Counted from the first letter of the stretch, positions 9,937 to 52,170 are shown. The stretch: 64,000 bases of DNA from an uncultured Pseudomonadales bacterium (GCA_964607285.1 CAZSJW010000001.1:2514-66513); one strand, 5' to 3'. The notes: generated by a model from the letters alone, not told the origin. Translations and numbers: made by a program.

Positions 9937-9937
9937 G

Positions 9938-10729: not shown

Positions 10730-10736
10730 TGGCTAC

Positions 10737-11759: not shown

Positions 11760-11800
11760 ATGAGCTTCCTTGGATATATTGTACAGGATGTGCTAGTGTA

Positions 11801-12592: not shown

Positions 12593-12594
12593 AT

Positions 12595-13377: not shown

Positions 13378-13392
13378 ACCAGGTATTGTAAA

Positions 13393-14193: not shown

Positions 14194-14196
14194 GGG

Positions 14197-15036
14197 TTAT
14201 CCTCCAGATGAAGCGTACTTGCGTACCCCGCTGCGCCAAAGTGCATCCACAGCAACCCCGAGTACCACCATTGTTGCTGCCAACATGAAAAGATCGCTAG
14301 ATTCAAGCACATATCTTCCTTGCAAGACACCTATGGGCACTGCATATAAAAACTTAAACGGGAGGAGGTTCGTGATTGTTCGCAGCCAATCAGGGAGAAA
14401 CTCCAAAGGCATGAGGGTGCCGCTGAGTATGGTGATACCTAGGAGTTTGAAGTGTTCCAGGCCTTGCGCCCCTTCAAACCAAAACGTTAGAAACGTGATC
14501 AGAATGCCAATGGCAAGTTGCATGAGGTATGCCACAAAAACAAGTGCTAGGAAACGGGCGAGAGTAATTAGTGAGATGGGTGGCAATGTAGTTCCTACTA
14601 CTTCTGCTGACCAATATATGAAAATAGAAAAAACTGGCAGAAACATACTGGCGTATAAAAGCTTACCGACTGTCTCACCCAAAACAATATCAGTCAGGTA
14701 GTAGTATGGCTTGGTGAAAAATCGATCAATTTGTCCCAAGCGAATTTCATCAGACCGCCAACCTTCAAAATGCACCTCAGTGAGGTTTGAGAGCAAGGCA
14801 CTGACTAGATAGTACGTGGTGATATCCGCTAACGTGTATCCATTAATGCTATTTTGGTCAGCATACAATTCCTGCCAGATGAGAAACAGGATAGCAAATG
14901 GCAAAAAACTCATGACAATCCAAATGGCCATTTCAGTGCGAAAAACCAAGACACGAGATATTTTGAAACGGACAATATGCAGATATCGCCAGATAGAGGC
15001 TAGAAAGCTGTGCTGAAGCGTACCAATGGCATGCAT
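14197..15036 (-). CDS. ABC-2-type transporter permease, type-A paralog 1
   Basis: Multi-TM. Motifs GYTLADITTY and LGQIDRFFTKPYY. Tail RKYASSGG. First gene of the seven-gene co-directional array. Confidence 0.8.
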   Translation of the reverse strand: MHAIGTLQHSFLASIWRYLHIVRFKISRVLVFRTEMAIWIVMSFLPFAILFLIWQELYADQNSINGYTLADITTYYLVSALLSNLTEVHFEGWRSDEIRLGQIDRFFTKPYYYLTDIVLGETVGKLLYASMFLPVFSIFIYWSAEVVGTTLPPISLITLARFLALVFVAYLMQLAIGILITFLTFWFEGAQGLEHFKLLGITILSGTLMPLEFLPDWLRTITNLLPFKFLYAVPIGVLQGRYVLESSDLFMLAATMVVLGVAVDALWRSGVRKYASSGG

Positions 15037-15416: not shown

Positions 15417-15800
15417 CTAGAGATACTTGTATCGCCACAATAAAGCGAGGCTGGCACCGAGTGTGTCGTAGCATATGTCACGGGCTGTGGCTGTCCTGCC
15501 AGGTACAAGTGATTGATGGTACTCATCTGAGACAGCGTATACCATGGTCAGTAAAAATGGAATGAGCCATGCAGCGTGTGTTGTAGCATTTGGGTTTGTG
15601 AGGCGATGTGCTCTATGCAGCAAAAGGTATAAGACAGCATACACACCTACATGAGCCATTTTCTTAAAGAAAAACTCATAATTGGATGCTTGAAATGACG
15701 GTAAGGCTTGCTGGGAGGAGAGGAAAAAAATCAATCCTGCCCAACAAACAGGAGGTGCGTAGGCGATAGCCCATTGAAATGTTTGTTGTGCTAGTTTCAT
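15417..15800 (-). CDS. VanZ-like membrane protein
   Basis: 127 aa, 4 TM segments. Motifs K..H...Y and SDEYHQSLVPGRTATARDICYDTLGA are typical of the VanZ family. Confidence 0.7.
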   Translation of the reverse strand: MKLAQQTFQWAIAYAPPVCWAGLIFFLSSQQALPSFQASNYEFFFKKMAHVGVYAVLYLLLHRAHRLTNPNATTHAAWLIPFLLTMVYAVSDEYHQSLVPGRTATARDICYDTLGASLALLWRYKYL

Positions 15801-16969
15801 GTCGGGTACTTTGGAGGCTGTGTATATAGTACAGTTGCACCACCCATCAGCAAAAATCCACTACCCAGTATAGCACCCAGAACTGCACCTTGTGGGATAT
15901 TCCTTTGTCTATATTCTAGAGTTCGCATAGGTTCTGTATGTGCAGAGGTGGTACTTTCTGTGTACTGTTTGAAAAGTATGGGTAGTGCAAGTGGAGGCTT
16001 TTTTTTCTTTGCAGGGGAAAGTAAGGTTCCAGGTGTTGCGGTTGGTGAAGCTTCTATCGTATGAGTGGAAAGTGAGGGGCTGGGGGAGGGAACTGTTGGG
16101 CTTGCAGCTAGAATTGTAGTTTCTGTCTGCCATTCACCTTCGATCAGTAGCAATGGTTCTCCAATGGTGCATGACGTGTACTTCGCTGAGGCAAGCACGA
16201 CGCCTGAACTAGACAGCACGAATACAGTGTCTCCAGTATTATTGAGCATATCTGCAGTCCACTTGATTGAGCTTTCGGCAAGTGGTGGAAGTGACCCTGT
16301 AGTTTGTCTTTGGTTTTGTTGTTCATCTGTGATACGTATTGTGCTGAGATCAAGTATGGTTGTTCCTGTGTTGGTGATGGTGACGTACTCATCTGTATCT
16401 GTTGCAGGGCAAGGGAAAAGCTCGGATATAGAGATTTTTGCTGGTGACGCCGTAGGTGACGGTGTGGGTAGTAGTATAGGACTTGCACTGGGACTTGATG
16501 TCGGTTGCGGTGTTGGTTCACTCAGCATACTTAGGTATGTGCCAGGACTTGGTTCGCTGATTTGCCAAGTGTTTACTGTTCTGGCCCAACTTTTGGCTTG
16601 TTCACTTGCTGAGTAGCTAAATGAATCTGTGATGTCTATTGCAGGTGTGCGCAAGGTGACCCCATCTGCTGCGTTATTCAATTTTGGGTTTTCAAAGGTG
16701 AATACTTTTGTTTCTCCAGGGTTGAGTGTTATATGCAAGGTGAGTAGCAAACTGGGCGAGCTCAGTTCATCCCAGAGTTCCCAATTGGTTAGGTCTATTG
16801 CTTCTGCATCGGGGTTATGGAGCTCGATCCATTCAGGCTCACCACTTGCTGGGTTTGGATGTAGTTCAGTAATGAGGACAGAGGAAAAAACGGGTTTCGC
16901 TCCTGCTACCAAAGCCCAAGTGTAGAACAGGCAAGTCAACATGAAAAACCGAGATACAAACATCTTCAT
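15797..16969 (-). CDS. Surface protein with two lamin-tail-domain (LTD) repeats, Pro/Ser/Thr linkers and a C-terminal TM anchor
   Basis: Signal peptide. LTD1 begins VLITELHPNPASGEPEWIELHNP, LTD2 begins ISISELFPCPATDTDEYVTITNTG. PTPQPTSSPSASP linkers. C-terminal hydrophobic segment GAVLGAILGSGFLLMGGATVLY. Confidence 0.75.
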   Translation of the reverse strand: MKMFVSRFFMLTCLFYTWALVAGAKPVFSSVLITELHPNPASGEPEWIELHNPDAEAIDLTNWELWDELSSPSLLLTLHITLNPGETKVFTFENPKLNNAADGVTLRTPAIDITDSFSYSASEQAKSWARTVNTWQISEPSPGTYLSMLSEPTPQPTSSPSASPILLPTPSPTASPAKISISELFPCPATDTDEYVTITNTGTTILDLSTIRITDEQQNQRQTTGSLPPLAESSIKWTADMLNNTGDTVFVLSSSGVVLASAKYTSCTIGEPLLLIEGEWQTETTILAASPTVPSPSPSLSTHTIEASPTATPGTLLSPAKKKKPPLALPILFKQYTESTTSAHTEPMRTLEYRQRNIPQGAVLGAILGSGFLLMGGATVLYTQPPKYPT

Positions 16970-17021: not shown

Positions 17022-20000
17022 CTAGGTTGCAGGTGAATTACTCTTAGGTGTTTTTTGTCTTTGTAGTAGCCCTGTGGCAACTAAAAAACTGCAGACTAAC
17101 AGTATCCAGATACCAATAAAGAGTAGTATTTGTGCATCGTGAATAACTATAATTGTAGTTACCCCCTCAGGTATGAACCATCCCTGTGCCCAATTATTGA
17201 CTGTAACTTCTGCTTTGATCTGCTGATGCTTGAGTACGCTTTGGAGAGCACTCCATACAGAAGTACCATCCCAGACATAGGCTCGCCAGCCAGGGTTCCT
17301 TGACTCATTGAGTGACATCACTCCATTTTCACCGTTCAGTTCAACCCAGTATGTACCAGTTCCCCAGCGTTTTATGGTGTTTACTGCCAGATTAGTGCTA
17401 TATAGCTGAGTATTTTTTGGGATAAGGGCAACTTGTGATAACCATTCAAACGAGGCAGGCATGGGTTGTATGGAGATCGCGTTCAACTCGTTTTGTGCTA
17501 GTTCTGTTCCGTACGATCTATTTTCAAAGTGCAGACTGTATTGAGAGATAGCCTGGTTTTTCCAATCAGGCACAGTTACCCACATATCAAACTCTTTGGA
17601 AGTCATAACGTGCTCAAAATCAACGCGGTTAGTGGCTAAGTTCTCCAAGTAGGCACGAATGTTTCGACCTGCATGATTTTTACCTGTAATGCGCAGCAGT
17701 GCAGGCGTTTGATTATTTGCGTGTGGAATGATGAAGCTATCACAGCCCGTTGCGCCACCACTGTTTTCATACAGCACAGAGTTGGCAGTCATAGTTTTAT
17801 TGCGAGAACCCCTATCAAACTCTGTACATGATGCAAACTTTGTTATGTGCAGTGAATCTAGTAAGTTACTGCTAGCAATGGTTGTAAGCACTAAAGTGGG
17901 TTGGTCTTGATCAAGGCGAACACTGGTGGTGGGGAGTTGTAGTTCATTCCAGATTGCAGAAGGTATAGTGGCAGTGTGTAAGTCACTGGACTCAATCAGG
18001 ATATGGGTAGCAGAGGGAGTTGCGATAGCTGTATCGAAGTAGTTGATGGTGATTTCCTCACCGTAGCGCAGCCCAGTTAGCGACACCGCTTGCTCTGAGT
18101 TTGCTTTAAGTTCTATCACTTGCCCGTTTAATTCAATAGTAAGTGCCTCAGGTGAAACAGCAAGTGGAACAGCTACGGATGGGAGTGTCGGGAACTCGAT
18201 ACTGGTATCTCCAGCTAAGACGCGCAGTGGTGTACTGAATGCTATCTTGAGCTCGGCATCTGAGTAAGCCAGTTTTGCAGTTTGGCTAAGATATTGGCCT
18301 TGAGTCAGCGGTGGGAAAGTGAGTTCGTACTGGCCTGAAAGCGTTTCGTGTGCCACAAACGAAGGCCCATTGGATGTGTTTGTGATAGGAATACTCTCTT
18401 GCTGCAAGTTAGCAAAAGGGTAGATGGTGTGTGGGATAGTCTCATCTGCCGTAATGGTATCAGTAGTGAGGAGAGTGCTGGGATCAAATCTAGAGTACAG
18501 AGAGTTTGCAGTGGTGTACGTAGCAGATTGCACCGCACTGACGGGTGCCACGGCAACAGATTTGTTTTGGTACAGGGAAATGCTTCCCAGCGTTCCCACT
18601 TTTTCAACACCAGGTAGCATAGCCAACATGGCTTGCAGTTCTGCCACAAAGAACACCTCTTTATTCGTGTTTGGCAAATATACTGAATCGTCCAGTAGTA
18701 CATGTGCAATGTTGTATTTCTGTAGCAATCTATCTAACTGATCTACATCCTGGTTGTACACCGCTCGCTGCATTTCCAATCGGTAGGTTTCATTAAAGGG
18801 ACTCCAGACGTCAAACGAACGCCCGAGAATAGGCTGATGCATGCCGTACCAGAGAAACCCAGAGCCTGTGTACCCTCTGTGTTCCATCCAACTGTGCATA
18901 TCCCAGCCTGTATAGGTGTAGATGGGAAACACAGCAACTCTCCCATATCTGGGCCGCTTGGCAAAGTACTCCATGACCTCTGTATACTCCTCAGGCAACT
19001 TGACTCGTGCTCCTTGATACAGGAAGTGGCCCTGCATACTTGGCCAGGATAACCAAAGTACGCAGAGTACGCACACTATGCCCGTTGTGTTGCGAGCTCG
19101 CGCTATTGTCTGTTGGGTAAGTCGCCTGGAGAAAAGTTCAAACAGCCCCGATATGCCTACCGCTGCCCAGAGTGATAGAAAAAGACTAGCAGACATAGAA
19201 AGCTTAGAGTAGGGAATTCTAAAGGCTTGATTAAGAATGGGTACAAAGCGAATGGCATCTGAAACATAGGTGAGAGGCCAAGTATCTGTGAGAAGTAGCA
19301 CGAAGGTACAAACAGCCGCGATTGCCAGCCCTGTGGCGGTGGCACTTCTCTTGCTGAGTCGAACTGCTCCCCACCCAACTCCCCATAGGCTGAGCAGGGC
19401 TATACTGTACCCAATCATGCGCACTACGGGTGACTCGAGGTGCTGCTTCCATGGAGTTAAAATTAATTCAAGAGGGCTGCCACTGTCAAATCTAGCTTGG
19501 TCATATGAGTCAAATAAGAACCCTTCAAGCAGAGACACCTCGGCTAAGTTGCCAGTAGCTCTTGTGGTGTAAATAAACTCTGTGGTGGTAATTTGATTAA
19601 GCTTTGCAAACAAGTAGTGATCACCTTGGGTGGCGGTGAAATAGGCAACGGGAGCCAGCCAGTAGGCGTTAGTGGCAAGTACTATCAATACCGCTAAAAG
19701 GCTGGTACGTACGGTCTCCCATCGTTTGGGGTGTATGAAGAACGCTGTACTGGCAGCACAACCTAAAAATAGCCCGTACGTGATAAAGAGTGGCGGAATA
19801 AAGCCAATAATGGAAAGGTAAAGATTGAGTAGGAAGAACACCACGAGTTTCCTGGTGGTTCGGTTTTCCAGTAATCCTACGAAACTCCAGAGTACCCATG
19901 GGAGCACTCCGTACATGACCGCAAAGGGCTCGAGTGCCACGTAAAATGTTTGAACAGTGCCTGGATGAAGTAAGTACAGCAGCGCGCCGATTGTCGCGGC

Positions 20001-20408
20001 CCAGGATTTAGTGTTCTGTTTGAGATTCAGCTGTTCTAGTGTTTGCGCAGTGAGGACGTATGCTCCAAGCACTCCGACTAGCAGCATGAGGTACATAAAT
20101 GCGTAGCGCAGGTACTGCAAAGGTATAAATAAACCAAGCACAGCTTGTGTTACAGCATGAAATAGTTGCGCAGAGTACCCATGCCCGCCAAGTAGTCCCA
20201 GTCCTTGGAAGCTTTGCCAGGCACCAGTTATTGAACGCTCAATGTTGAGTGCAGGGTTAAACTCACTGGCCATAGTATCCCAGCTGAGAAACCAGGTACC
20301 AAGTTCAGTATTAGTTAGGACAATTGCCAACCAGGCAACAAACACTACAACCACGCCCAAGTGTTTACTGAGCAAAGACTGGAATGAGCTTTTTAAGCCG
20401 TGCCACAT
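17022..20408 (-). CDS. 1128-aa polytopic membrane protein with a large extracytoplasmic region and C-terminal TM; GT-C-like glycosyltransferase candidate
   Basis: About 12 or more hydrophobic segments in the first ~480 aa, a long soluble region, and a final TM LLFIGIWILLVCSFLVATGLL. The architecture resembles large GT-C / DUF3367-type enzymes. Family assignment is not verified. Confidence 0.6.
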   Translation of the reverse strand: MWHGLKSSFQSLLSKHLGVVVVFVAWLAIVLTNTELGTWFLSWDTMASEFNPALNIERSITGAWQSFQGLGLLGGHGYSAQLFHAVTQAVLGLFIPLQYLRYAFMYLMLLVGVLGAYVLTAQTLEQLNLKQNTKSWAATIGALLYLLHPGTVQTFYVALEPFAVMYGVLPWVLWSFVGLLENRTTRKLVVFFLLNLYLSIIGFIPPLFITYGLFLGCAASTAFFIHPKRWETVRTSLLAVLIVLATNAYWLAPVAYFTATQGDHYLFAKLNQITTTEFIYTTRATGNLAEVSLLEGFLFDSYDQARFDSGSPLELILTPWKQHLESPVVRMIGYSIALLSLWGVGWGAVRLSKRSATATGLAIAAVCTFVLLLTDTWPLTYVSDAIRFVPILNQAFRIPYSKLSMSASLFLSLWAAVGISGLFELFSRRLTQQTIARARNTTGIVCVLCVLWLSWPSMQGHFLYQGARVKLPEEYTEVMEYFAKRPRYGRVAVFPIYTYTGWDMHSWMEHRGYTGSGFLWYGMHQPILGRSFDVWSPFNETYRLEMQRAVYNQDVDQLDRLLQKYNIAHVLLDDSVYLPNTNKEVFFVAELQAMLAMLPGVEKVGTLGSISLYQNKSVAVAPVSAVQSATYTTANSLYSRFDPSTLLTTDTITADETIPHTIYPFANLQQESIPITNTSNGPSFVAHETLSGQYELTFPPLTQGQYLSQTAKLAYSDAELKIAFSTPLRVLAGDTSIEFPTLPSVAVPLAVSPEALTIELNGQVIELKANSEQAVSLTGLRYGEEITINYFDTAIATPSATHILIESSDLHTATIPSAIWNELQLPTTSVRLDQDQPTLVLTTIASSNLLDSLHITKFASCTEFDRGSRNKTMTANSVLYENSGGATGCDSFIIPHANNQTPALLRITGKNHAGRNIRAYLENLATNRVDFEHVMTSKEFDMWVTVPDWKNQAISQYSLHFENRSYGTELAQNELNAISIQPMPASFEWLSQVALIPKNTQLYSTNLAVNTIKRWGTGTYWVELNGENGVMSLNESRNPGWRAYVWDGTSVWSALQSVLKHQQIKAEVTVNNWAQGWFIPEGVTTIIVIHDAQILLFIGIWILLVCSFLVATGLLQRQKTPKSNSPAT

Positions 20409-21720
20409 ACTGCCATTCTAGAGTGTTTCTGAGCGGGTTGGAAGTGTAGATGGTAGTGAGCTCTTCTTGCAGGCGCACTTCTGGTGATCGTTGCACAGCG
20501 AGGTCTTTAGCAAGGGCAGCAATTTTTCTGCGTACAGAAACTTTACCCAGTAGTCTGAGGTGCTCTACGAACGAGCGTTTGTTTCGCTTAAAGACCAACT
20601 TGTCTGTAGAGATTGCGTGTTTGGCTAGCAGCTCTTGGATATCACCACTCTGTAAATATGCACCTAAGTCTTTGGAAAGTATGAAGGGTACGCCGTAGGC
20701 AATACCTTCACCCCAGGATGCAGATGCACCAAGGATGCCACGGTATGGTAGTACTGCCATATCTGCAACAGCAAAGTAACGGCTGAGCTCTGCATCAGGA
20801 ATGAAGCCAGTCAGACGAATGTTTTTAGAGTGCACTGCAGCCTGACTGAGTGAGCGGTAGAACTGCTCATAGTGGGTTTTTCCCGTTTGGGATGGGGCTT
20901 TTCCCCCTGCCAAAATAAGATGCAGTTCTGCATCCCCCAACTGATCTGCAGCAATATCTCGAACTGCATTCACCAGCCAATCAACACCTTTGTATCGAGT
21001 CATGAAGCCGAAACAGACTAAGACTAAATCATTTGGTTTGAAACCCATTCTGGCTCTCCAGTAGCGGCGGCCCTTTAGATTTTTTGGGTACACCCAGAGA
21101 GGTGATACAACTAATTTTTGTTGTGCTACATATGGGGAGAGACGTTGGCGCATGCTGTCATCTAGACAAATAATTTGATCAAGACACATACCGAGTACTC
21201 GGTAGTACCAAGGCAAAAGTTTGGTTAGTGCCTGCATAGTTTTGCCAGTCTGCGAACGACCCAAGTGGCGAGCTAGAAAGCCAAAATTTGTGATCACATT
21301 ATGTGCAAAGTAACTGAGGAAGTATCCTGCACTTCTCAGAGCAAGATAAAAAGGAAGGGCAGCGGCCATCTGCAGCATGTTTCCACTGGTGTAAAACTCA
21401 GAGTGGATATGTAAATGTTTTGCTTTATTGAATAGTCTCAATGCTTGGGAGATCTGAAGGTACATTTTAGGAGACGCTGAAAAAACTGGCAGCACTAAGA
21501 CTCTGCCTCGCTCCAGAAGCTGTGGTTTGCGGTCATATTCCTGCTGAACTAAAACCACAAATCGCTGTTTTGTGCTGCGAGCGACAGTGCCAACAGTTTG
21601 CTGGGTGTACTTTGCTACACCATGATATGAGTGGGCAATGTTCTGGTAGGGGTACTTGGAAAGCACCAAGATCGTATCTGGCGAGTTGAATCGCGAAATG
21701 ATCTGTTTTGATAGTTTCAT
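20365..21720 (-). CDS. GT-B fold glycosyltransferase (family 1/4-like)
   Basis: C-terminal nucleotide-sugar-binding style block GFIPDAELSRYFAVADMAVLPYRGILGASASWGEGIAYGVPFILS. 44-nt overlap with the downstream membrane-protein gene. Confidence 0.7.
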   Translation of the reverse strand: MKLSKQIISRFNSPDTILVLSKYPYQNIAHSYHGVAKYTQQTVGTVARSTKQRFVVLVQQEYDRKPQLLERGRVLVLPVFSASPKMYLQISQALRLFNKAKHLHIHSEFYTSGNMLQMAAALPFYLALRSAGYFLSYFAHNVITNFGFLARHLGRSQTGKTMQALTKLLPWYYRVLGMCLDQIICLDDSMRQRLSPYVAQQKLVVSPLWVYPKNLKGRRYWRARMGFKPNDLVLVCFGFMTRYKGVDWLVNAVRDIAADQLGDAELHLILAGGKAPSQTGKTHYEQFYRSLSQAAVHSKNIRLTGFIPDAELSRYFAVADMAVLPYRGILGASASWGEGIAYGVPFILSKDLGAYLQSGDIQELLAKHAISTDKLVFKRNKRSFVEHLRLLGKVSVRRKIAALAKDLAVQRSPEVRLQEELTTIYTSNPLRNTLEWQYVARLKKLIPVFAQ

Positions 21721-21782: not shown

Positions 21783-23432
21783 TCAGTCGTCTAACGAATA
21801 TGCTGCGAAAACATCTGTATAGACTGGTGATAGGTTGCCTTTAGGGTCGACAATCCAGAAGCCTCTACATTGATTTGCCTCTGGTTCAGGAACGGAGCAT
21901 TCGTTATCGAGGAGCTGCCAGTAGAAAACAAATGCCGCATGTGCTGCAAGAGCAGCAGCTGTGGCCTCTCTAACTAACTTTTTTGCGTCCTCGGGTGTGT
22001 AAGAACCTGGTCCATGAGGGACGCCTAGTTCACTGATAAACACCTTGGAGTGAGGAAAAGTTACTTGCAAGTACTCGAATGCACGGCTGAAGGCAGTTAA
22101 TCCCGCCTCAAGAATGGTGTCATAAGCAGAGTATCCGATATAGTCTGGTGTAAAGTCGAGTTGTGGAATAACTGCAGTGGCTGCTCTAACCTTCTCATAC
22201 CGAGCATCTTGCACACGGTTCACCTCAACTGAATGAGTAAGTTGTAACTGGGTGTTTGGATTCTGTGACTTGGCATCAGCGATAGCACGATGAATTGTGT
22301 TGAGATACTTGATGGCATTAGCGACTGCAAGCTCTGAAGCATCAAGCTCTCTTGCTGCCCAACCACCCTGAGCCTCAAGCATGTGCCAATCAAGTTCGTT
22401 AGGCGTCTGGATAATTATTTCTTTATCTAGATGACCATAGTTTCTTAGTAAATGTGAGACGAAGTCAAAAAACTCATTGTATGTGGACTGTAATTGCTGT
22501 TCAGTCAGGGGCTGATGAGAAATATTCCAAGCTGTGGCTGATTCTGGTAGTCCTGCTTCGGTAGTCACTACTAGGTGTTTTAGTTGGGGATGTTGGAATA
22601 CCCAGCCGAACTCAGAGGACTGAGCTACATCGAGAATAGTAACGCGCTCTGGGTCACTTGGACAAAAGCCAGTGAATTGATACACCCCATGTGGGTAGCG
22701 CGTCTTGTCAGGATGAGTGCCACAAATTACTCTGGGAGAAATTTCAACCTCTAGGGAAGAAAAGCCAAGCTGTGTAGCCATTTCTACCCCATCTGCGAGA
22801 AACTCTCTGCCAGTTTGTGGGTAAAGACCTGCAATGTGTGATACACCGATGCGCTCGTCTAGGTGCACAAGCTGTGGCTGAACTTCGCGAGTAAACTCGG
22901 CATCTGGTGAGTTGGTAGTTGGTGTTGCTTCGGGATCATGTGCGGTTGCAGGAGTGACTTGAGGTATGGGGGCACCTTCCTTCTTGCGCAGGCAAGCACT
23001 CAGTCCTAATAGCAGCATGCTAACGGTACAGGCAGATGTTTGTGTCAGGAAACGGCGTCTGGAGCGAGCCAGGAGCTTTTTGCGTTCTAAGATTTTTTGT
23101 TGCAGGGTAAGGCGATGTTGAATGGTGAGCAACATACTCCGTTCTACGGGTGTGTACTTTTTGGTTGCTTGGTTTGCAGAGTAAAGCTGCTCTTGAAGGT
23201 AAGATTGCAACAGTTCAAGTACCGAATAGTATTGATCTTTGTTAGCACTCGCGAGCCCGTCGGGAGTGATTGGCAAAAGTTGCTTGGCGCAGTTTATGAC
23301 ATCGGGAAATGAGAGCTTGCCGCTGGAAAGTTTTTGTAAGCTTTGGGGTAAGGTGTTGTTTTTAGCCGTTTCGGGGTGAGGCAGCTCTCGAGGCTGTTGG
23401 ACTGATTGTTCGGTATTTGTATAAAGAACCAT
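21783..23432 (-). CDS. Clan GH-A (GH5-like) glycoside hydrolase candidate with internal Tat-like/lipobox segment
   Basis: Beta-strand + NE (IIIQTPNELDW) and beta-strand + E (KVFISELGVPHG) about 125 aa apart, as for the acid/base and nucleophile of (beta/alpha)8 GH-A enzymes. SRRRFL followed by LLLGLSAC at residues 124-147. Alternative start ATG at 23135. Confidence 0.55.
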   Translation of the reverse strand: MVLYTNTEQSVQQPRELPHPETAKNNTLPQSLQKLSSGKLSFPDVINCAKQLLPITPDGLASANKDQYYSVLELLQSYLQEQLYSANQATKKYTPVERSMLLTIQHRLTLQQKILERKKLLARSRRRFLTQTSACTVSMLLLGLSACLRKKEGAPIPQVTPATAHDPEATPTTNSPDAEFTREVQPQLVHLDERIGVSHIAGLYPQTGREFLADGVEMATQLGFSSLEVEISPRVICGTHPDKTRYPHGVYQFTGFCPSDPERVTILDVAQSSEFGWVFQHPQLKHLVVTTEAGLPESATAWNISHQPLTEQQLQSTYNEFFDFVSHLLRNYGHLDKEIIIQTPNELDWHMLEAQGGWAARELDASELAVANAIKYLNTIHRAIADAKSQNPNTQLQLTHSVEVNRVQDARYEKVRAATAVIPQLDFTPDYIGYSAYDTILEAGLTAFSRAFEYLQVTFPHSKVFISELGVPHGPGSYTPEDAKKLVREATAAALAAHAAFVFYWQLLDNECSVPEPEANQCRGFWIVDPKGNLSPVYTDVFAAYSLDD

Positions 23433-23562: not shown

Positions 23563-24132
23563 TTAGGAGGACGGCTCGAACCAGAAGGTGGCACCTGTGT
23601 CCCACCCTCTCGCATAGTAGTCGTTGTAAGCCAGTTGCCAGCTAGGGTGAGTGTTTAGCTCACCTCCAACATCCACAACATGGTTTCCGCTGACATTCGG
23701 ACACGGATTTTCGTTCGGAATTTCTGAGTGAGGAGGCACTGGCCAAGCCACGCCACCTGTGCAGTATCCCGCGGGGGGTTGCATGGGGCCTGAAAACAGT
23801 ATCGGGAGAAAAATCACATTTGTGCCTCCCTGCATAGGCTCGAACCAGAAGGTGGCACCTGTGTCCCACCCTCTCGCATAGTAGTCGTTGTAAGCCAGTT
23901 GCCAGCTAGGGTGAGTGTTTAGCTCACCTCCAACATCCACAACATGGTTTCCGCTGACATTCGGACACGGATTTTCGTTCGGAATTTCTGAGTGAGGAGG
24001 CACTGGCCAAGCCACGCCACCTGTGCAGTATCCCGCGGGGGGGGTCACTGTTCCGCCCTGCCCATGCACAACAAGGGCAGTCAGCAGTGAAAAGAAAAAA
24101 ACAAGCATAGTCATTGTCAACTTGCGTTCCAT
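23563..24132 (-). CDS. Secreted protein consisting of a perfectly duplicated ~69-aa module
   Basis: Signal peptide MTMLVFFFSLLTALVVHG. The module PPAGYCTGGVAWPVPPHSEIPNENPCPNVSGNHVVDVGGELNTHPSWQLAYNDYYARGWDTGATFWFEP occurs twice. SD GGAGG upstream. Looks GC-richer than its surroundings. Confidence 0.85.
   Translation of the reverse strand: MERKLTMTMLVFFFSLLTALVVHGQGGTVTPPAGYCTGGVAWPVPPHSEIPNENPCPNVSGNHVVDVGGELNTHPSWQLAYNDYYARGWDTGATFWFEPMQGGTNVIFLPILFSGPMQPPAGYCTGGVAWPVPPHSEIPNENPCPNVSGNHVVDVGGELNTHPSWQLAYNDYYARGWDTGATFWFEPSS
23573..24042. repeat. Tandem direct repeat, period 264 bp, with 206 bp identical in both copies
   Basis: 23573..23778 is identical base for base to 23837..24042 (compared by eye). 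The copies end in G6 (23773..23778) and G8 (24037..24044) runs. Confidence 0.9.
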
Positions 24133-24417
24133 TCGTATCTACCTCCACTTACACCAGCCATCCCAATCCCCGAAGTGGGGCGGGTAGGCGTGGCGATCGA
24201 GCACTTTTCCAGAGAAAAGAACCCCATCACCACGCCCGAGGCGTGCGTTTGCGGGAGGTGCAACCATAGGAACGAGCCATAGGCAGCACAACTAATTCGA
24301 GTCGCAATATACCACTTGTTAACGAACAATCATCGAGAACTGGAGCGGAATGGTTCAGCAGGCAGCAATTGCCTGGAAACAGTCACGCGCCAGGGTGCCA
24401 ATCACTTGGCAGCGTGT

Positions 24418-24446
24418 ATTATACCCCTATAGACTTATAACGTCAA
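24418..24446 (-). promoter_or_regulatory. Sigma70-type promoter TTGACG-17-TATAAT driving the 23563..24132 gene through a ~280-nt leader
   Basis: On the - strand: TTGACG (24446..24441), 17-nt spacer, TATAAT (24423..24418). Confidence 0.6.
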
Positions 24447-24469
24447 TATTATAGGTTCATACATGCAGT

Positions 24470-24498
24470 TTGACTCCAGGCTAAATATGATGTAAAAT
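24470..24498 (+). promoter_or_regulatory. Sigma70-type promoter TTGACT-17-TAAAAT for 24528..24791
   Basis: TTGACT at 24470..24475, 17-nt spacer, TAAAAT at 24493..24498. SD GGAG about 7 nt before the ATG. Confidence 0.5.
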
Positions 24499-24527
24499 AA
24501 CCAAATAAGTATTGAAATGGAGATTAT

Positions 24528-24791
24528 ATGAAAATTGAAACTATGTCCACACCACTCGCTGCTTTATTTGTAGCTGTAGCTATCGCTGCAACCGCAGGTT
24601 TAGCTTACACTGCTGCTCAACAGCAGATGCGAAACCAAGCTGTGGAGAGTTGTTTCCGCGCTGGTATGGTGGAGTCTGTCCGCGAAGGCGAAGGAGAGAC
24701 TAAAGAGCTAAAAATCACTGAGCCAGTTCGTGAAATCTACACATACTGCTTGCAAGACAAGGGGTATACCTCTGTCATTCAGGGTAAGTAG
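24528..24791 (+). CDS. Small membrane-anchored/secreted protein
   Basis: 87 aa. N-terminal hydrophobic segment PLAALFVAVAIAATAGLAY, two Cys, own promoter and SD. Confidence 0.65.
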   Translation: MKIETMSTPLAALFVAVAIAATAGLAYTAAQQQMRNQAVESCFRAGMVESVREGEGETKELKITEPVREIYTYCLQDKGYTSVIQGK

Positions 24792-25708
24792 GTATCCCTG
24801 GGATCTAAAGTCGGATCAGTTTTTTCTAACACCACACTGAAGGGTGATGTCCCGCTGTAGTGTTTTGCGTCCATCATGGCGTATGCTTCTAGTTCGTACC
24901 CAGTAGTTAGATCCATAATTTGCTCGTACAGGGTATTAAATTTGCCTCGGAGGTATCTTAGTGGTAAAGCTAGAACCAAACTGATTGAGATTGCCCCTAA
25001 AGCCGAGGGGTTTGTAAGTGCTTGCTCAGCGATGGCAAAACCTGAGATAAATGCAGCTCCCGTGAAAGCCGCAAAGGTTTTGAGACGAAACTCTAAAATT
25101 CTACGATGAGCCTGTTTCATTTCTTTTGTTGGCCCTTTGACCCTTTGTATTAGATGTTGCCGTTCATGTCTCCACATTGCATCGAGAAGTTGTCGGAAAT
25201 ATTGGGGTTTATATTCCTCTGGTAAGTTTCTAGGAAAAAATAGTCGGTGTGTATGAGGCGTCCCTTTGGTAAACAGTGAATACAGAGATAGAATGTCAAA
25301 CTGCATTTTTGGTTCTGTTAGTAGCAACCGGTGATTCAATTTATCAACTTGATCTGCTGCAGACATTAGTATTGGTACGTCCAACTTTAGAATCTGGTTT
25401 GCGTGTTCAGTATCATTGGACATCACACCAGCTTTAATGCTGCGCACTAGCTCGGATTGATTTGTTTGGCTGCTAATGATCGGTACAAAGGTGTCCGAAA
25501 TCCGTTCCGCTTCAGCCTCTGATAGACCTTGTCGAATTGCTTCTGCTTTGAGGTCTGCTCTCATGCGTGCAGTATCGATTCTGATAATTGCATGTGCTTC
25601 GGAAATCTGTATACCAATCTCGTATACTCGATCCTTCAGGAGCTCAGTCACTTGCTTTTCAGAGATGTGTCGTTGTGTTGAGCCCTCACTTGGATTTTTT
25701 TCTGACAT
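24779..25708 (-). CDS. HExxH-motif membrane protein (intact paralog)
   Basis: 309 aa. Soluble N-domain, conserved LDAMWRHERQHL (HExxH), two hydrophobic segments, then ELEAYAMMDAKHY. Paralogous over its full length to 25748..26724. Confidence 0.8.
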   Translation of the reverse strand: MSEKNPSEGSTQRHISEKQVTELLKDRVYEIGIQISEAHAIIRIDTARMRADLKAEAIRQGLSEAEAERISDTFVPIISSQTNQSELVRSIKAGVMSNDTEHANQILKLDVPILMSAADQVDKLNHRLLLTEPKMQFDILSLYSLFTKGTPHTHRLFFPRNLPEEYKPQYFRQLLDAMWRHERQHLIQRVKGPTKEMKQAHRRILEFRLKTFAAFTGAAFISGFAIAEQALTNPSALGAISISLVLALPLRYLRGKFNTLYEQIMDLTTGYELEAYAMMDAKHYSGTSPFSVVLEKTDPTLDPRDTYLP

Positions 25709-25747
25709 ACTACAATGAGTATACAGGAAACCGTGGTAGTTAGAACT

Positions 25748-26724
25748 TTAACTAAAGTATTTTTTGTGAGGATCCATGTTCGGATCAGCTTTTTCAAGCC
25801 GAACAGTGAATGGTGAGTTGGCTCTGTGGTGTTCTGCAGTCATCATGGCGTAGGCCTCAATTTCTTCGTTACTTAGCAAGTTTAGCGCTCTGTCACTAAT
25901 CATACTCACAAGTATGCTAACTGGCATAGCTAGTCCAATTGAGACGTTTACACTTGGAGGTAGCTGAAGATTCAGCAAAGACAATCCAGTAGAAGCCCAA
26001 GAAAGAAACAAAGCACCTTTAAAGACGGAGCGCATTAGGTTAGCAATTTTACGATGTCTAATATGTGAATCTGTGATTCCCTTATCCTTCTCTGGCTTTA
26101 AGTATTGCACTAAATGCTCACGCTCGTGTCGCCACATCGCATCCAGTGCTTGCTTGATGTACTGAGTTTTCATTTCTGGAGGCAGCGTATCTTTGGGAAA
26201 AACCACACGAACAGAACTTAGTGCATGTTTGCTAAATAAGGAGTGTATGCTGATGATATCAGGACTTACTTTAGCCGAGCGTAGTTGAAATCGATGATTG
26301 AAACGAGTCTCTTTTCAAATGTTTCGAGTATCCCTTCCCAGTCAAATCCGAGCATTGAGCCAAGCTCAGCAACTTTTCTTACGAATGTCCCTTGGTCTTG
26401 CTCATTTTTTCCAGGTCTTCGTCTTTGATTAAAAAGTACAATATTGTCTCTACCAATTATTGGGAAAAAAAGTTTTGCTGCTAGTTCTGCCCTGGGCTCA
26501 GAAACCCCTTGCTGTATAGCATACTCGTAGAGATCCTGGCGCATCTTACCTGTATCTACTGAAATAGTTGCGATGTCATCATCAAAGGGTTGGATAAGCT
26601 CATACACTTGATCTTCACCCAGTTCCAGTAGTTCCTCATCTGTGATTTCCTGAGGTCTGACAGGAGCGATATCTAAAGTATTTGGATGTAAAGTATCTGT
26701 AGAATGTGTCTCATCGTAGTTCAT
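25748..26724 (-). pseudogene. Frameshifted paralog of 24779..25708 (tracked as two ORFs, 26266..26724 and 25748..26206)
   Basis: The N-ORF aligns to the N-half of the intact paralog and the C-ORF to the C-half (LDAMWRHEREHL, EIEAYAMMTAEHH). C-frame homology continues upstream of its ATG (NHRFQLRSAKVSPDIISIHSLF vs NHRLLLTEPKMQFDILSLYSLF). The frames switch near GAAAAG (26311..26316). Confidence 0.7.
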
Positions 26725-26841
26725 AGTTGTTTATCCCTATTGTTTGGGAACTATCCAGATACCAGCGTAGCATACGCAACAGAGCTTGAGAAGCCAACAC
26801 TGACTTGCGGAAACGGTGATAAATCAGCATACTGTGAGCAG

Positions 26842-28986
26842 ATGCCCAAATCAGTTCCACAGTTGCTCAGGAAATCACTTAGTTCCCTATTGTTTCACTT
26901 GCCTGTGATTGTGTTGGGCATGTTTTTAGCAGCGTGGTTTACATTCCCTGCTATCACCCAACTGCGAACACACTTCATCGGTGATGGTGGAGATAACTAC
27001 CAGTACGCAGGTTTTCAGTACCTAGTAGCTACTAACATCGATTCTGGCAAGTGGCCGTATGCTGCTTTGCAGAGTTGGTACTATCCAAATGGTTTTGAGT
27101 TTGCTCGTGGGTATGACAGTGTTTTGTCTACACTGGGTGGTGGGTTGTTGGTTTTGTTGACTAGGGATTTAGCCTATAGCTATAACTTAAGCATCCTCTT
27201 CTCCTTCCTTTTCAATTTTTTAGCAGCATACGCGCTGTATTGGAATCTGAGCCGCTCTCGGATGTGGGCAAGTGTGGGTGCGGTGCTGTTTGGTTTCTCG
27301 TTTTATGCACTCGCACGGGCGGGGGGGCATGCGAACTTGTTGCTGATTGGTGGGTTTCCCTTATTCCTTTTGAGTCTGCTGCAGTTGCTACGTAAACAAG
27401 AGTGGCGAGCGGTGCTTCTGTTGGGTTTGGCTAGTATTTTGCTAGTGTTTAGTTCTTTACAGTACGCGCTAATGGCAGTGGCAAGTTTATTGATCGGTAT
27501 ACCACTGGTTGCATTAGTGTATCCAGAAGCAATGGGGGCAGTGCTGTTCAAAAAAATACCAGCTGCGTTTTTGCAGTTAGCGGTCGTAGGATTGTTTGTG
27601 TGTGTGGTGGCTGCACCATTTGTTTGGCCATTTATCCATGCATATCAGGCACAGGATTTTTATCAGCGAGGCGAGTTCGACTTTAGTCCTCGTATGGTGG
27701 ATTTATTGCTGCCAAACCCATATTTTCCTGTTCCCTTGAGTTCGCTATTACCAGTTGTTCCTGGTACGGTGGGGATTGAACAGACGATTGCGCTTGGACC
27801 TGTATTTTTTGTGTTGATTGTTTTTTTGCTGTGGAGGTTTCGCAGGCAGCATGTAGTGGGCTTAGCGGGTTTGGTGCTCACGGTATTTGGCATTTTGGCA
27901 CTAGGCACGCGTAACCCTGAGACAGGCATCATCTTGCCTTACCACTTGCTGAGTTCGGTCTTCCCATTTTCGGCAATTCCTGAGGCTGGTCGGTTTGTGG
28001 TGGTTATGAATGTTGTAGGTGGGGCATTGATTGCATCATATGGCAAGAAGATTTTTCGAGGGCGGGCAGCTCGTGTGTCACTTGGGATGTTTGTCTTAGT
28101 TTTGCTCATTCTTGAACGGTCAAGTTGGGGCAAGTTCTTTCAGCTGCCAGTACCGAGTTTGGGGTTAGCGCAAGCAGTGCAGGCACAACCAGGTGCTGCA
28201 GTCTTGGAGCTGCCACTGTTTGAGCAGCGACAAAGTGTCTCACCTGTGTACTTCCACAAAGCTACCCTCACTGGAGAACCGCACTGGCTGGCGCATACTC
28301 CCCAGGCTATGGCTTTTTTGCAGGGTAATCCTGCGCTGGCGGGGTTGACGTGTTTTGATCGCACGCATTTGACAGGGACGGTGCCAGGGCAAGGTTTGAG
28401 CATTAGCACAGAGGAGCGCGCAGCCTTTTTCAAGTACCTCAAAACTGCAGGTGTTCAAACTGTGGTGATCCGCAGGGATGGAACGCTGTACTGGGATATG
28501 TGTCGTGAAACACTTGCACGGATTGATCAACTTTTCCCACAGTATCTTACTGCTGAAATCACTGCGCAGGGAGCACAGTCAGAGACGCAGATGTTTTGGA
28601 GTGGAGAGGCGTTCACTGGTGGGCTGTACTTCCCAAGTAGTGGAGCTTTAACTATTCATGGCTTTTCCTATATGCCCTATGATGAGCAACCAGAATTGAG
28701 GATTGATGGTCAACAGGTGTCTGCTGAGCAGTGGAGCTATGAAGTTTCAACGCATGAGAGCGGGGAGCGAATGGTCTTTGTTCGTACAGGCGCAGCTGGT
28801 GAGCGACACCAGGTATCTGCTGGAGCTACGCTGGAAACGACTATTGCTAAAACGCCGCAACACCGGGGGGTGCTGACACTTTGGTACACGTATGAGCCAG
28901 TGGGTGCTGAAGAGCTACAGCTACAGGATGGAGTAGTTACAAAAGTGTATGAGGAGTCGGCTGTGGAGGTGTGGCGGATTGAGTGA
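26842..28986 (+). CDS. 714-aa polytopic membrane protein, GT-C/YfhO-like candidate
   Basis: ATG at 26842 preferred, because the tracked start 26704 overlaps the divergent gene. At least 12 hydrophobic segments followed by a ~230-aa soluble C-terminal region. Family not verified. Confidence 0.7.
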   Translation: MPKSVPQLLRKSLSSLLFHLPVIVLGMFLAAWFTFPAITQLRTHFIGDGGDNYQYAGFQYLVATNIDSGKWPYAALQSWYYPNGFEFARGYDSVLSTLGGGLLVLLTRDLAYSYNLSILFSFLFNFLAAYALYWNLSRSRMWASVGAVLFGFSFYALARAGGHANLLLIGGFPLFLLSLLQLLRKQEWRAVLLLGLASILLVFSSLQYALMAVASLLIGIPLVALVYPEAMGAVLFKKIPAAFLQLAVVGLFVCVVAAPFVWPFIHAYQAQDFYQRGEFDFSPRMVDLLLPNPYFPVPLSSLLPVVPGTVGIEQTIALGPVFFVLIVFLLWRFRRQHVVGLAGLVLTVFGILALGTRNPETGIILPYHLLSSVFPFSAIPEAGRFVVVMNVVGGALIASYGKKIFRGRAARVSLGMFVLVLLILERSSWGKFFQLPVPSLGLAQAVQAQPGAAVLELPLFEQRQSVSPVYFHKATLTGEPHWLAHTPQAMAFLQGNPALAGLTCFDRTHLTGTVPGQGLSISTEERAAFFKYLKTAGVQTVVIRRDGTLYWDMCRETLARIDQLFPQYLTAEITAQGAQSETQMFWSGEAFTGGLYFPSSGALTIHGFSYMPYDEQPELRIDGQQVSAEQWSYEVSTHESGERMVFVRTGAAGERHQVSAGATLETTIAKTPQHRGVLTLWYTYEPVGAEELQLQDGVVTKVYEESAVEVWRIE

Positions 28987-31289: not shown

Positions 31290-32951
31290 ATGCAGTATCA
31301 TAGCTTTATGACAAACTTTGAATGGGAACCTGAGTGGGAAGATGAGGTGGAGCCAACACCTCCTGTTGTAATGACAAAACGACAGTTTTTACTGGATGCA
31401 GTCAGAACTGCAGCAGCAGTGGGTCTAGGTGCTGCTTTTGGTTACCCACTTGGCAGGTATGGGACTACTTCTCAAACGGAGCATCCAGACGCATCGGTAC
31501 CCCCTGTGGCTCAGGTTGATGCTCGTTTACAATCCTCATATCCTGAAACATATAGTTCGTACAAAGAGTATAGCTTTACCCCTCCAGAGAATATGCGGGC
31601 AGTGGCTGGCAATGGCAATTACGCACAGGAGGTGCAGCGCCGAGATCAGACGAACACGAGTGACAAGGGTATGTTTGACTCTGAACTGTTGAATACCCCA
31701 GATGGAGTGCCACATCAGCGCATTTTTTGCGAAGCCAAAAATAGAAAGACGGGGGAAGTAGAACGAGTACTTGTGTTGGATACTGATTGGTTCAGGGGTT
31801 TTCCTATCAGCATACAAAGAGCAAAGGTCTCACCAGACGGACGACTCATGCTGTTTTGGGGGACGCGGACCCTTGCAAGTATTGGTGGTGTGGATACAGT
31901 ACTACCAATACTAGAACCTAGTTCAAGTGATGATACACAGACACAAATCTGTATTGCCATGAAAATTTCTGATGCCCCTGCGCATACTCCTAAATTTACA
32001 ATACTAGGCAGTGATGCTACATATGCGTTTGACTCTCAGGGAGTGATTCATTCGCTAGAGACGACTCAATCATACACCATTGGTTTCTTTGGTGTACCAG
32101 AGCATAGAAATGAAGTAATACCAGCATTTTGTAAGCGGACAGCGCGAGATACTGTTTCTGGGTATTACGATCTTCAGTCTGAAGCGGGGACTACTTTTAC
32201 ATCAAAAGTTCAATTTGCTGAATCATTACTGCAGTCTACTCTGGGAGTTAGCAGTGAGTACAAGTTTGTTGGAGTGAGTACCCAGGTACCCCCAAGGCGA
32301 TTTTATGATCAACGGTTTGCAGTTTCGCCTGATGGGCTCGTTCTTGCAGTGAACACGAGGTCAGTCTTTTTCTTCGACCAGCAAACAGCAAGTTCAAAGT
32401 CGTCAGTGTCTTGTATTAGAAATTTGGGGTCAACTGGGAGCAATTCTGACTTTACCGTTGTGACAGCTTTCGATTACCCTGAAATTTTTGATCTTCGGGG
32501 AGCTGTCCAAGCGCAGGATGTTGAGTTGGTTGGAGTCCTTCCTGATGGAAAGTTTGTAGTTGCGTATGCGGTACAGAGACCGCTAGATGCTATGTACATG
32601 GGCACTGAAGTTCGCGCTTTAGGTGTTGTTACGCCTGTCCCTGTATGGGAACATCCCAATGGGTATACATTATCCTTAATTGTAATAGAAGGTGAAGTAG
32701 ATGCTGTGGTGCAGAAGGCTGGACATTTTGCTTTGACGCTTCGCAGTGGTGAAGTGGCACAGTTTCCAGAGAGTGCACTACAATCAGCACTAAAACCTGG
32801 ATCAATGTATTCGTTACACCCAGAAAAGGGTCCTAGTGCTCTGAAAAAAATTGGATACTTAGGTCTGGTCTTGCCCAGTTCTCCCAGTGAGGAAATGGCT
32901 CCCCCTGTTCCTAGACCTGCACCCAGGCGTTACTGGGAATCAGTAACATAG
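31290..32951 (+). CDS. Exported protein with PD40/beta-propeller-like SPDG repeats
   Basis: MTKRQFLLDAVRTAAAVGLGAAFG (Tat-like KR variant; alternative start 31371). Repeats VSPDGRLMLF, VSPDGLVLAV, LPDGKFVVAY. Confidence 0.75.
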   Translation: MQYHSFMTNFEWEPEWEDEVEPTPPVVMTKRQFLLDAVRTAAAVGLGAAFGYPLGRYGTTSQTEHPDASVPPVAQVDARLQSSYPETYSSYKEYSFTPPENMRAVAGNGNYAQEVQRRDQTNTSDKGMFDSELLNTPDGVPHQRIFCEAKNRKTGEVERVLVLDTDWFRGFPISIQRAKVSPDGRLMLFWGTRTLASIGGVDTVLPILEPSSSDDTQTQICIAMKISDAPAHTPKFTILGSDATYAFDSQGVIHSLETTQSYTIGFFGVPEHRNEVIPAFCKRTARDTVSGYYDLQSEAGTTFTSKVQFAESLLQSTLGVSSEYKFVGVSTQVPPRRFYDQRFAVSPDGLVLAVNTRSVFFFDQQTASSKSSVSCIRNLGSTGSNSDFTVVTAFDYPEIFDLRGAVQAQDVELVGVLPDGKFVVAYAVQRPLDAMYMGTEVRALGVVTPVPVWEHPNGYTLSLIVIEGEVDAVVQKAGHFALTLRSGEVAQFPESALQSALKPGSMYSLHPEKGPSALKKIGYLGLVLPSSPSEEMAPPVPRPAPRRYWESVT

Positions 32952-32954
32952 CAG

Positions 32955-34391
32955 TTACTCTCTGGTTTCACTTGGTTTGATTAACACACTGCCACCAGCG
33001 GGCATGCCGCCTTGGGCGAGTCGGCAAAGTTTGAGAAACTCTTCTGGAGTTTTGGCATTTCGCAACTCAGATGTATGCTGTGATATGTAGGTAAGTTCTA
33101 GTGCTCGCTGATTTCGGTCAATGTTGTTGAGTGGATGAGAAGGAATTGTGAGCCCAAGTGCTTGCACGATTAATTTGAGTTCTTGAGGAGCGGTACGAAA
33201 ATCGTCCGAGAGTTCCTCATATTCTTGCCATCCAGCGTTCAGCTTGTTGGACAACAGTACTGTCTGCATAGCTTCATCTGCGGTCATGTAGAGTAATTTT
33301 CCTACAATTTTAGGATTATGAGAGTGTTCCACTATCTCTAGGCGAAGAAGTGTCCCATGCGGTTGCAGGGCGTTGTTGTCATGCAACAAGCTGACCGCAA
33401 ATGTGCACTGAGGTTGGGATACGTCATCGGCATCTACTTTGGGTAGTTGTACCACTAGTTCAAGATGGGGCGCATCCACAGGTGTAGCTAAGCTCTCATC
33501 CGCACTTTCTCGTACCAAAAGTTTTTGAGTGAGAAGTTCGCAAAAATGGGCAATAGCACTGAGTCGGTGATGTTCTGCCACCAGATCGTACCCCTTATGC
33601 CAAACTTCATAAATGTTTTGCTGCACTTGATCTAGATCTTTGAGCAGGTTGTGTTGCACGAGGTGGACATACAAGGCTAGAAAGTTTTGTAGAAGCTGGG
33701 GTTCGCCCAGTACAATATTGCTTAATCGGGCATTTGCCTCTTTGTTTGTAACCACAATACAGTCACTTTCCTCAATGCCTTCACCTACACGGATGGAGTA
33801 TCCATAGCCACCTGGTAATGGTTCAAGGTAGGGTTGCTGGAGTTTTGCGTGTTCTAGTTTGGTTGGATCAAGCAAGTACTCTGAGGGGTCCATAAACGGT
33901 GAGTTTCTGTCCCAATCTAACTGGGCAGCCTGCATGAGCTGTGTGTTGAATCGGCGGAGCAGCTTTGCGGGCGAGTACTCGCTAGGTACGTTGCCATATT
34001 GGTTGAGTGCGTGTTTTCTGATTTTTTGCTCATCGCTTTGTGTGAGCAAGTGCGCCAAGATTGTCTGCAACTGATCGGGTTTGCCAGTTCTATACAGATC
34101 AGTTGCTGTCACAAGGTCAACATACATCGTGTAGACCCAAGGGTTTTCTGGAACGGTGACTTCAGATACGAGAGCGATGAGTGCCTGAGGCATAATGGAA
34201 TCAGATAGTTGCAGCACCTCTGTGACCAAGGCTGTGTAGACCTCAGATAGTGGGTAGTTTCTCCAGCGAACGTTTGGGTACAAGATACGCAGTGGTACAG
34301 GTATGACTTGTCGTAGTTCAGTAATGAGTCTCTTGCTCTCTGCTTCGGCTATGCGGTGGAAGAGTCCTTCTGGATTGGTGGATGGGTGCAT
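32955..34391 (-). CDS. Hypothetical cytoplasmic protein (478 aa)
   Basis: Long uninterrupted ORF with ordinary composition and no recognised motif. Convergent with 31290..32951, with a 3-nt gap. Confidence 0.75.
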   Translation of the reverse strand: MHPSTNPEGLFHRIAEAESKRLITELRQVIPVPLRILYPNVRWRNYPLSEVYTALVTEVLQLSDSIMPQALIALVSEVTVPENPWVYTMYVDLVTATDLYRTGKPDQLQTILAHLLTQSDEQKIRKHALNQYGNVPSEYSPAKLLRRFNTQLMQAAQLDWDRNSPFMDPSEYLLDPTKLEHAKLQQPYLEPLPGGYGYSIRVGEGIEESDCIVVTNKEANARLSNIVLGEPQLLQNFLALYVHLVQHNLLKDLDQVQQNIYEVWHKGYDLVAEHHRLSAIAHFCELLTQKLLVRESADESLATPVDAPHLELVVQLPKVDADDVSQPQCTFAVSLLHDNNALQPHGTLLRLEIVEHSHNPKIVGKLLYMTADEAMQTVLLSNKLNAGWQEYEELSDDFRTAPQELKLIVQALGLTIPSHPLNNIDRNQRALELTYISQHTSELRNAKTPEEFLKLCRLAQGGMPAGGSVLIKPSETRE

Positions 34392-52096: not shown

Positions 52097-52170
52097 CGGG
52101 GAGTAGTTCAGATGGCTAGAATGCTCGCATGGGGTGCGAGTGGTCGCAGGTTCGAGTCCTGTCTCCCCGA
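52097..52170 (+). tRNA. tRNA-Pro (anticodon GGG)
   Basis: Hand-folded cloverleaf. Acceptor CGGGGAG/CTCCCCG, D-arm with GG, anticodon stem CTCGC/GCGAG, loop AT-GGG-GT, 5-nt variable loop, T-arm GCAGG-TTCGAGT-CCTGT, discriminator A. CCA not encoded. Confidence 0.9.

Follow-up and report, generated by a model that had tools for sequence, protein, structure and literature searches.

The 64,000-nucleotide stretch of DNA analysed here (GCA_964607285.1 CAZSJW010000001.1:2514-66513, listed as from an uncultured Pseudomonadales bacterium; hereafter the window) raises the question of what is encoded by two adjacent minus-strand loci at 24779-26724. A preliminary description of this DNA read them as tandem paralogues of a membrane-embedded, gluzincin-like metalloprotease with an HExxH motif, two hydrophobic segments and a conserved C-terminal tail. 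The analysis reported here points, at what we consider about even chances, to a new, fast-evolving family of membrane-anchored hydrolases of the gluzincin (zinc-dependent) type with a cytoplasmic active site. The family itself is unannotated, previously undescribed and very rare.

The intact gene of the pair, copy 1 (P0001), is an open reading frame (ORF) of 309 residues at 24779-25708 on the minus strand, and its sole exact database match is its own entry. A word-indexed search of 5.8 billion proteins returns no protein but copy 1 itself. An exhaustive phmmer search with copy 1 as the query, covering 1.84 billion cluster representatives, yields 11 proteins at E <= 0.001, among them the query and the C-terminal half of the neighbouring copy 2. 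Four more, close relatives of the member P0014, are contributed by a profile search (one of them is annotated as [quoted passage not shown]), and three further loci by a scan of the JGI metagenomes, and all searches combined give 17 distinct family sequences. Identity to copy 1 across the family is 19-38%, and pairwise identity among members falls to approximately 19%.

The residues H181, E182, H185, Q188, E272, F290 and E295 (copy 1 numbering) are invariant in all 17 sequences, and A57, Q60, Q173 and W179 are also listed as invariant. R50, G61, R183, L186, I187, E274, A275 and P289 are near-invariant, E274 being replaced only in the L007 member, by Asp. The best conserved part of the protein is the block WRHERQHLIQ, which contains the HERQH motif (H181-E182-x-x-H185; 25154-25168, minus strand) and in which W179, H181, E182, H185 and Q188 are invariant in both alignments, A2 and A4. 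Neither the HExxH motif nor the downstream Glu can be put down to chance, as every recovered homologue keeps both unchanged. The preliminary description had made its proposal depend on conservation of the His and Glu residues among orthologues, and since H181, E182, H185 and E272 are kept in 17/17 sequences, the proposal is not refuted.

Downstream of this block, the segment E272-L-E274-A275 (24884-24895, minus strand) is a candidate "glutamate helix" carrying the putative third metal ligand. No conserved His is present downstream of HExxH in the family alignment, which leaves E272 as the sole plausible third ligand; its candidacy is suggested by conservation and by a predicted helix at 270-277. 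The protein extends approximately 35 residues beyond the Glu helix, and this tail includes the SPFSVVLEK strand (24821-24847, minus strand; P289, F290 and E295 conserved), which is predicted as a β-strand at 290-296 with a predicted local distance difference test score (pLDDT) of approximately 80. The motif blocks quoted in the preliminary description are all located in both copies: LDAMWRHER(Q/E)HL, which lies at 25151-25186 in copy 1 and 26111-26146 in copy 2, as well as E(L/I)EA and SPF.V.LEK.

AlphaFold models were obtained for the full-length protein (pLDDT 60) and for a hairpin-deleted form (pLDDT 62.5, with core blocks at 78-94). The N-terminal domain is modelled as a soluble α/β domain of approximately 150 residues without a signal peptide, comprising a β-hairpin at 28-45, helices at 46-59 and 64-73, a variable, low-confidence insert at 79-137, a strand at 134-136 and a helix at 139-148. 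It is followed by a long, amphipathic HExxH helix (164-191) that bears the invariant W-x-H-E-x-x-H-x-x-Q, by two long helices (195-232 and 234-267), by the Glu helix and by the C-terminal strand. Hydropathy and the models agree on a hydrophobic helical hairpin at approximately residues 205-256 of copy 1 (24941-25096, minus strand), with K/R-rich flanks and a Pro-containing turn; its 19-residue Kyte-Doolittle peaks are 1.47 and 1.64. In every member, the hairpin helices are moderately hydrophobic with peaks of 1.5-2.1 and K/R-rich outer flanks, and the turn is short and usually contains Pro, which bears out the earlier observation of two hydrophobic segments between HExxH and ExEA. No hydrophobic segment precedes HExxH in copy 1, and only weak ones are found family-wide, with peaks of 1.34 in P0007 and 1.45 in P0011, values far short of those of a transmembrane helix.

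These features fit an N-in/C-in membrane hairpin, either transmembrane or re-entrant, and given that a signal peptide is absent, the putative active site would have its two halves in the cytoplasm. A very unlikely alternative is that the protein is soluble, with the two segments forming a buried hairpin of a globular domain and the HExxH motif lying in an ordinary cytoplasmic enzyme or in a non-catalytic helix. The 19-residue maxima of only 1.5-2.1 and the richness of the segments in Gly, Ala, Ser and Thr, with occasional charged residues, would suit such a protein. However, all members retain, despite their low identity, two segments of approximately 20 residues that have K/R-rich outer flanks and are joined by a polar, Pro-rich turn, and the hairpin of the AlphaFold model is long and protruding rather than packed into the core.

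A membrane-anchored hydrolase of this layout would work as follows. H181, H185 and E272 would bind one zinc ion, and E182 would serve as the general base. The hairpin would dip into or span the membrane and come back, such that the Glu helix meets the HExxH helix again in the cytoplasm, the arrangement of HtpX and MecR1/BlaR1, while the C-terminal strand would complete the sheet of the N-terminal domain. Proteins or peptides located where the membrane faces the cytoplasm would be the substrates.

In the structure comparison, approximately 13 of the 60 top matches are zincin-fold proteins, with alignments of 83-134 residues. They comprise the M1 aminopeptidases 4wz9, 3qnf and 9cam, Spartan SprT (6mdx), EcxA (4l6t), the M30 protein lugdulysin (7bb8), the M49 protein DPP3 (5zum), YbeY (1tvi), an M32 protein (1k9x, aligned over 97 residues), the M13 protein PepO (9kn2 and 4iuw) and the minigluzincin selecase (4qhf, 17% identity). 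The count includes the putative hydrolase 3cmn, presumably a zincin, and is 12 without it. T-fold and SPFH proteins reach scores similar to those of the zincin matches, probably as a reflection of the N-terminal α/β sandwich. On the strength of these models, the zincin fold would be supported rather than demonstrated, the structural signal being consistent but weak.

At the sequence level, scans of both copies and all members against Pfam, NCBIfam, PADLOC and PHROGs yield nothing above noise, and the full-length family profile retrieves nothing from the PDB sequences at E up to 10. Thus, no match in these databases places the HExxH motif in a non-catalytic family, a placement that the preliminary description had named as speaking against its proposal. 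Matches of the N-terminal domain to MurR/RpiR helix-turn-helix and Fas death domains, obtained with a hairpin-deleted profile against the PDB (E 0.05-0.2), were rejected because the E-values are not significant and because the second helix of the family is acidic, unlike a DNA-recognition helix.

The lack of a match to any peptidase family would also be expected if the HExxH/Glu metal site belonged to a protein other than a peptidase, such as another hydrolase at the membrane surface, with lipid or cell-wall precursors as conceivable targets, or a membrane protein that senses metal or has a regulatory function. The genes lie in or beside a cluster of glycosyltransferase and membrane-protein genes both in the window and in L002, from a related organism, which is in line with this explanation. 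However, the link to a glycan cluster is not kept at the other loci, and an invariant Glu that immediately follows the first His marks a zincin site as catalytic, not structural. We regard a non-peptidase role as unlikely.

Among known membrane gluzincins, HtpX (M48B) shows close parallels in several respects: a cytoplasmic HExxH helix is followed by two hydrophobic helices and, a few residues on, by a Glu helix, and E-x-x-A surrounds the Glu in both. The His-to-Glu spacing is similar, presumably 78 residues in E. coli HtpX (H143-E222) and 86 residues here. The two N-terminal transmembrane helices of HtpX are absent from the family, which has the soluble domain of approximately 150 residues instead, and the Asp of the M48 ExxAD motif is not conserved, the position being occupied by Y, F, Q, K, R or N. 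We know of no M48 counterpart of the C-terminal SPF...E strand. Comparison of the family alignment A2 with E. coli HtpX by hhalign gives a probability of 0.4% (the HtpX sequence used is verified against PDB 3cqb over residues 54-157), and Peptidase_M48 gives no Pfam or NCBIfam match at E up to 10 and no PDB sequence match.

MecR1 and BlaR1 (M56) resemble the family in having a gluzincin core with an amphipathic re-entrant hairpin that separates HExxH from the Glu motif and begins and ends in the cytoplasm (PMC6925264); experimental mapping places the MecR1 hairpin between HELSH and EKVCD (PMC6925264). At approximately 31 residues, the hairpin of M56 is shorter than that of the family, the M56 Glu motif is ExxxD, the Asp of which is absent here, and there is no sequence match. 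M56 proteins also start with three transmembrane helices and carry a penicillin-binding sensor domain outside the cell, whereas the family has neither; Peptidase_M56 gives no Pfam match, and no C-terminal penicillin-binding sensor domain is present. The minigluzincin selecase (M. jannaschii MJ1213, 4qhf) would share with the family a small zincin core, in which a β-sheet and its backing helix are combined with the HExxH helix and a C-terminal helix. However, minigluzincins are soluble proteins of approximately 110 residues that contain no membrane hairpin, and their third ligand is a His (PMC6925264), for which this family has no conserved downstream counterpart.

By analogy, the layout appears to be that of M48 and M56, yet the family cannot be filed under either. 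Of the membrane gluzincin-like metalloprotease proposed earlier, the motif order stands, no sequence or profile comparison ties it to a peptidase family, and zinc binding and proteolysis are what we infer rather than observe. A bolder and more doubtful claim is that the proteins constitute a new gluzincin family at the MEROPS level, in which the module of HExxH helix, membrane hairpin and Glu helix, set in larger membrane domains in M48 and M56 enzymes, would be in its smallest natural form; such a family would be fast-evolving, confined to Microgenomates, and either of independent origin or a stripped-down, diverged relative of a known family.

Several points weigh against a membrane-anchored gluzincin. 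Neither sequence nor profile comparisons (Pfam, NCBIfam, PDB, hhalign) link the proteins to a peptidase family, and the hairpin is only marginally hydrophobic for a segment that truly crosses the membrane. The models are of low-to-medium confidence (pLDDT 60-62) and derive from an alignment of 11-15 sequences, and the HExxH motif itself may bias AlphaFold toward a zincin arrangement. In addition, no conserved neighbour is found in the ten family loci compared, which deprives the family of a functional hint from its surroundings.

The second locus differs from copy 1 in its integrity. The minus strand of 24779-26724 contains three ORFs rather than two, of 309 residues, 152 residues (with a GTG start) and 152 residues. 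One of the small ORFs, at 26266-26724, terminates at a TAA codon (26268-26266) and is 40% identical to copy 1 (BLASTP, E=5e-13). The other, at 25748-26206, lies within a region at 25748-26269 that is read in the -1 frame and is 39% identical to copy 1 (BLASTP, E=4e-33). Since the two align to the N-terminal part and the C-terminal half of copy 1, respectively, they are two halves of one paralogue, copy 2, which spans 25748-26724 on the minus strand and is split by a -1 frame break into the two 152-residue ORFs. The C-terminal half contains HEREH (26114-26128), the hairpin (25892-26038), EIEA (25853-25864) and SPFTVRLEK (25790-25816). At the DNA level, the paralogy is evident in 95 nucleotides at 73% identity (24801-24895 versus 25770-25864). 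The homology of the tandem paralogues is thus upheld by BLASTP and by DNA identity, whereas the second locus is not the single gene that it was taken for.

The frame breaks at CTAAAGTAAG (26265-26274, minus strand), beyond which the C-terminal half carries on in the -1 frame. This frame is open from approximately 26290, and the earliest possible start in it is the GTG at 26206. Conserved codons are present upstream of this GTG, and the segment between the TAA and the GTG reads DIISIHSLFSK, compared with DILSLYSLFTK in copy 1. Insertion of one A into the AAA run of CTAAAGTAAG restores a 325-codon ORF, collinear with copy 1 and sharing 38% identity with it. Apart from the break, no further defect is found, and every invariant residue is kept. 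Because a single A restores the ORF, conserved codons span the gap and no other disruption is present, copy 2 most likely carries a recent one-base deletion, as either a recently inactivated pseudogene or a consensus error. By sequence identity (38%), it appears to be an old paralogue of copy 1.

The same junction sequence is present in an independent assembly, a Logan contig (L001, run SRR12762285) that is 100% identical to the window over 24013-26276. This contig ends 8 nucleotides upstream of the junction, and its end beside the break may reflect a population variant at that site.

A programmed -1 ribosomal frameshift in copy 2 was considered and rejected, as the site G CUA AAG UAA contains no canonical X XXY YYZ slippery heptamer, no stimulatory structure is found (the 111 nucleotides 3' of the break fold no better than shuffled sequence, z = +0.66), and the nearest homologue elsewhere, P0007, is encoded by one uninterrupted ORF of 310 residues. 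A designed split into two genes was likewise rejected, and nothing supports low-level P-site slippage on A-AAG ahead of the stop codon. Promoter and terminator scans around the pair give signals at the level of shuffled sequence.

As to the source of the family, the RecA encoded in the window shares 90% identity with a RecA that carries the label Candidatus Woesebacteria, and the next named matches are from Pacebacteria, Microgenomates and Patescibacteria. The window is chromosomal, with genes for SecY, RpoA, RecA, RNase Y, RF2, FtsEX and a DUF4012 protein. On present evidence, the family is known only from Patescibacteria (candidate phyla radiation, CPR) of the Microgenomates type, which are tiny bacteria of symbiotic habit, and from metagenome contigs without an assignment. 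No relative is returned by two scans of 185,579 GTDB species representatives, and the source genome is not matched either.

Divergence within the family is rapid relative to its surroundings. In L002 (3-896 and 945-1877), an orthologue of the GT1 gene of the window (20365-21720; 77% identical) lies immediately ahead of the P0007 gene, whereas the identity of P0007 itself is no more than 34% to copy 2 and 28.5% to copy 1, which indicates that the family diverges much faster than the neighbouring genes. In the window, the equivalent position next to GT1 is held by a polytopic membrane protein of 1128 residues that overlaps GT1 by 44 nucleotides; the label "GT-C-like" for this protein finds no Pfam or PDB sequence support and is neither confirmed nor excluded.

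Such behaviour would also be expected of an accessory "conflict" gene, that is, a toxin-like, defence or symbiont-host zincin residing in variable regions. A role of this kind would explain the rarity, the patchy distribution, the fast divergence, and the local duplication and decay. Its appeal lies in the small number of sequences (approximately 17) and the absence from the GTDB representatives, in the 34% identity of copy 2 and P0007 beside the 77% of the adjacent GT1 genes, and in the tandem pair with one decayed copy, which is found in the window only, among the loci examined. Genes of a mobile or accessory character also adjoin family members (L005 90-1292; L008 631-1875 and 3611-5137; L012 81-1396): precomputed Pfam matches point to BrnT/CopG toxin-antitoxin genes and Fic genes, and the transposase-like ORFs and a conjugation-type coupling protein resembling VirD4/TraG were recognised solely by eye. 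However, neither PADLOC nor PHROGs gives a match, the proteins lack a secretion signal and a conserved partner gene (an immunity gene, for example), and other members are located among housekeeping genes (ATP synthase, ribosomal proteins). A conflict role is judged improbable; it concerns the biological role and is compatible with a zincin mechanism.

The pair itself is flanked by two proteins without a family match. The divergent neighbour, at 26842-28986 on the plus strand (ORF open from 26704), is a polytopic membrane protein of 714 residues, for which searches of Pfam, NCBIfam and PDB sequences lend no support to the earlier "GT-C-like" designation, which is neither confirmed nor excluded. 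The convergent neighbour, at 24528-24791 on the plus strand, is a protein of 87 residues with one N-terminal hydrophobic helix, and its gene overlaps the 3' end of copy 1 by 13 nucleotides. The surrounding ORFs of the window at 17022-20408, 21783-23432, 26704-28986, 31290-32951 and 32955-34391, which include two big polytopic membrane proteins, form a block without a Pfam match, as is typical of uncharacterised CPR envelope loci.

Additional features of the window lie apart from the pair. A 206-nucleotide direct repeat with 100% identity and a spacing of 264 nucleotides (23573-23778 and 23837-24042) is contained in the minus-strand ORF 23563-24132, which encodes a signal-peptide protein of 189 residues with two identical modules of approximately 69 residues (PPAGYCTGGVAWPVPPHSEIPNENPCP...); the repeat reflects a duplication of very recent date or else an artefact of the assembly. 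On the minus strand, 9136-15036 encodes six ABC-2 type permease paralogues in a run, together with one ABC ATPase; next comes a lamin-tail-domain protein at 15797-16969. At 52097-53831, tRNA-Pro(GGG) (52097-52171, plus strand) is overlapped by the ORF of a large serine recombinase (52116-53831, minus strand), and an integrated element may have its edge here.

If the proteins are membrane-anchored gluzincins, they would represent a peptidase family that has remained unannotated, without a Pfam, NCBIfam or PDB relative and with only a handful of members among approximately 15 billion sequences. The soluble zincin core would be split by a single membrane hairpin, an arrangement simpler than those of HtpX, Ste24 and BlaR1. 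As a minimal model for membrane-proximal zincins, the family could help to explain how, in these enzymes of medical relevance, a hairpin brings the third zinc ligand into place; beyond this, its practical value is modest, since the family is tiny and has no conserved genomic partners. The proteomes of Patescibacteria and Microgenomates are largely uncharacterised, and such a hydrolase would possibly be a lineage-specific factor of their episymbiotic lifestyle.

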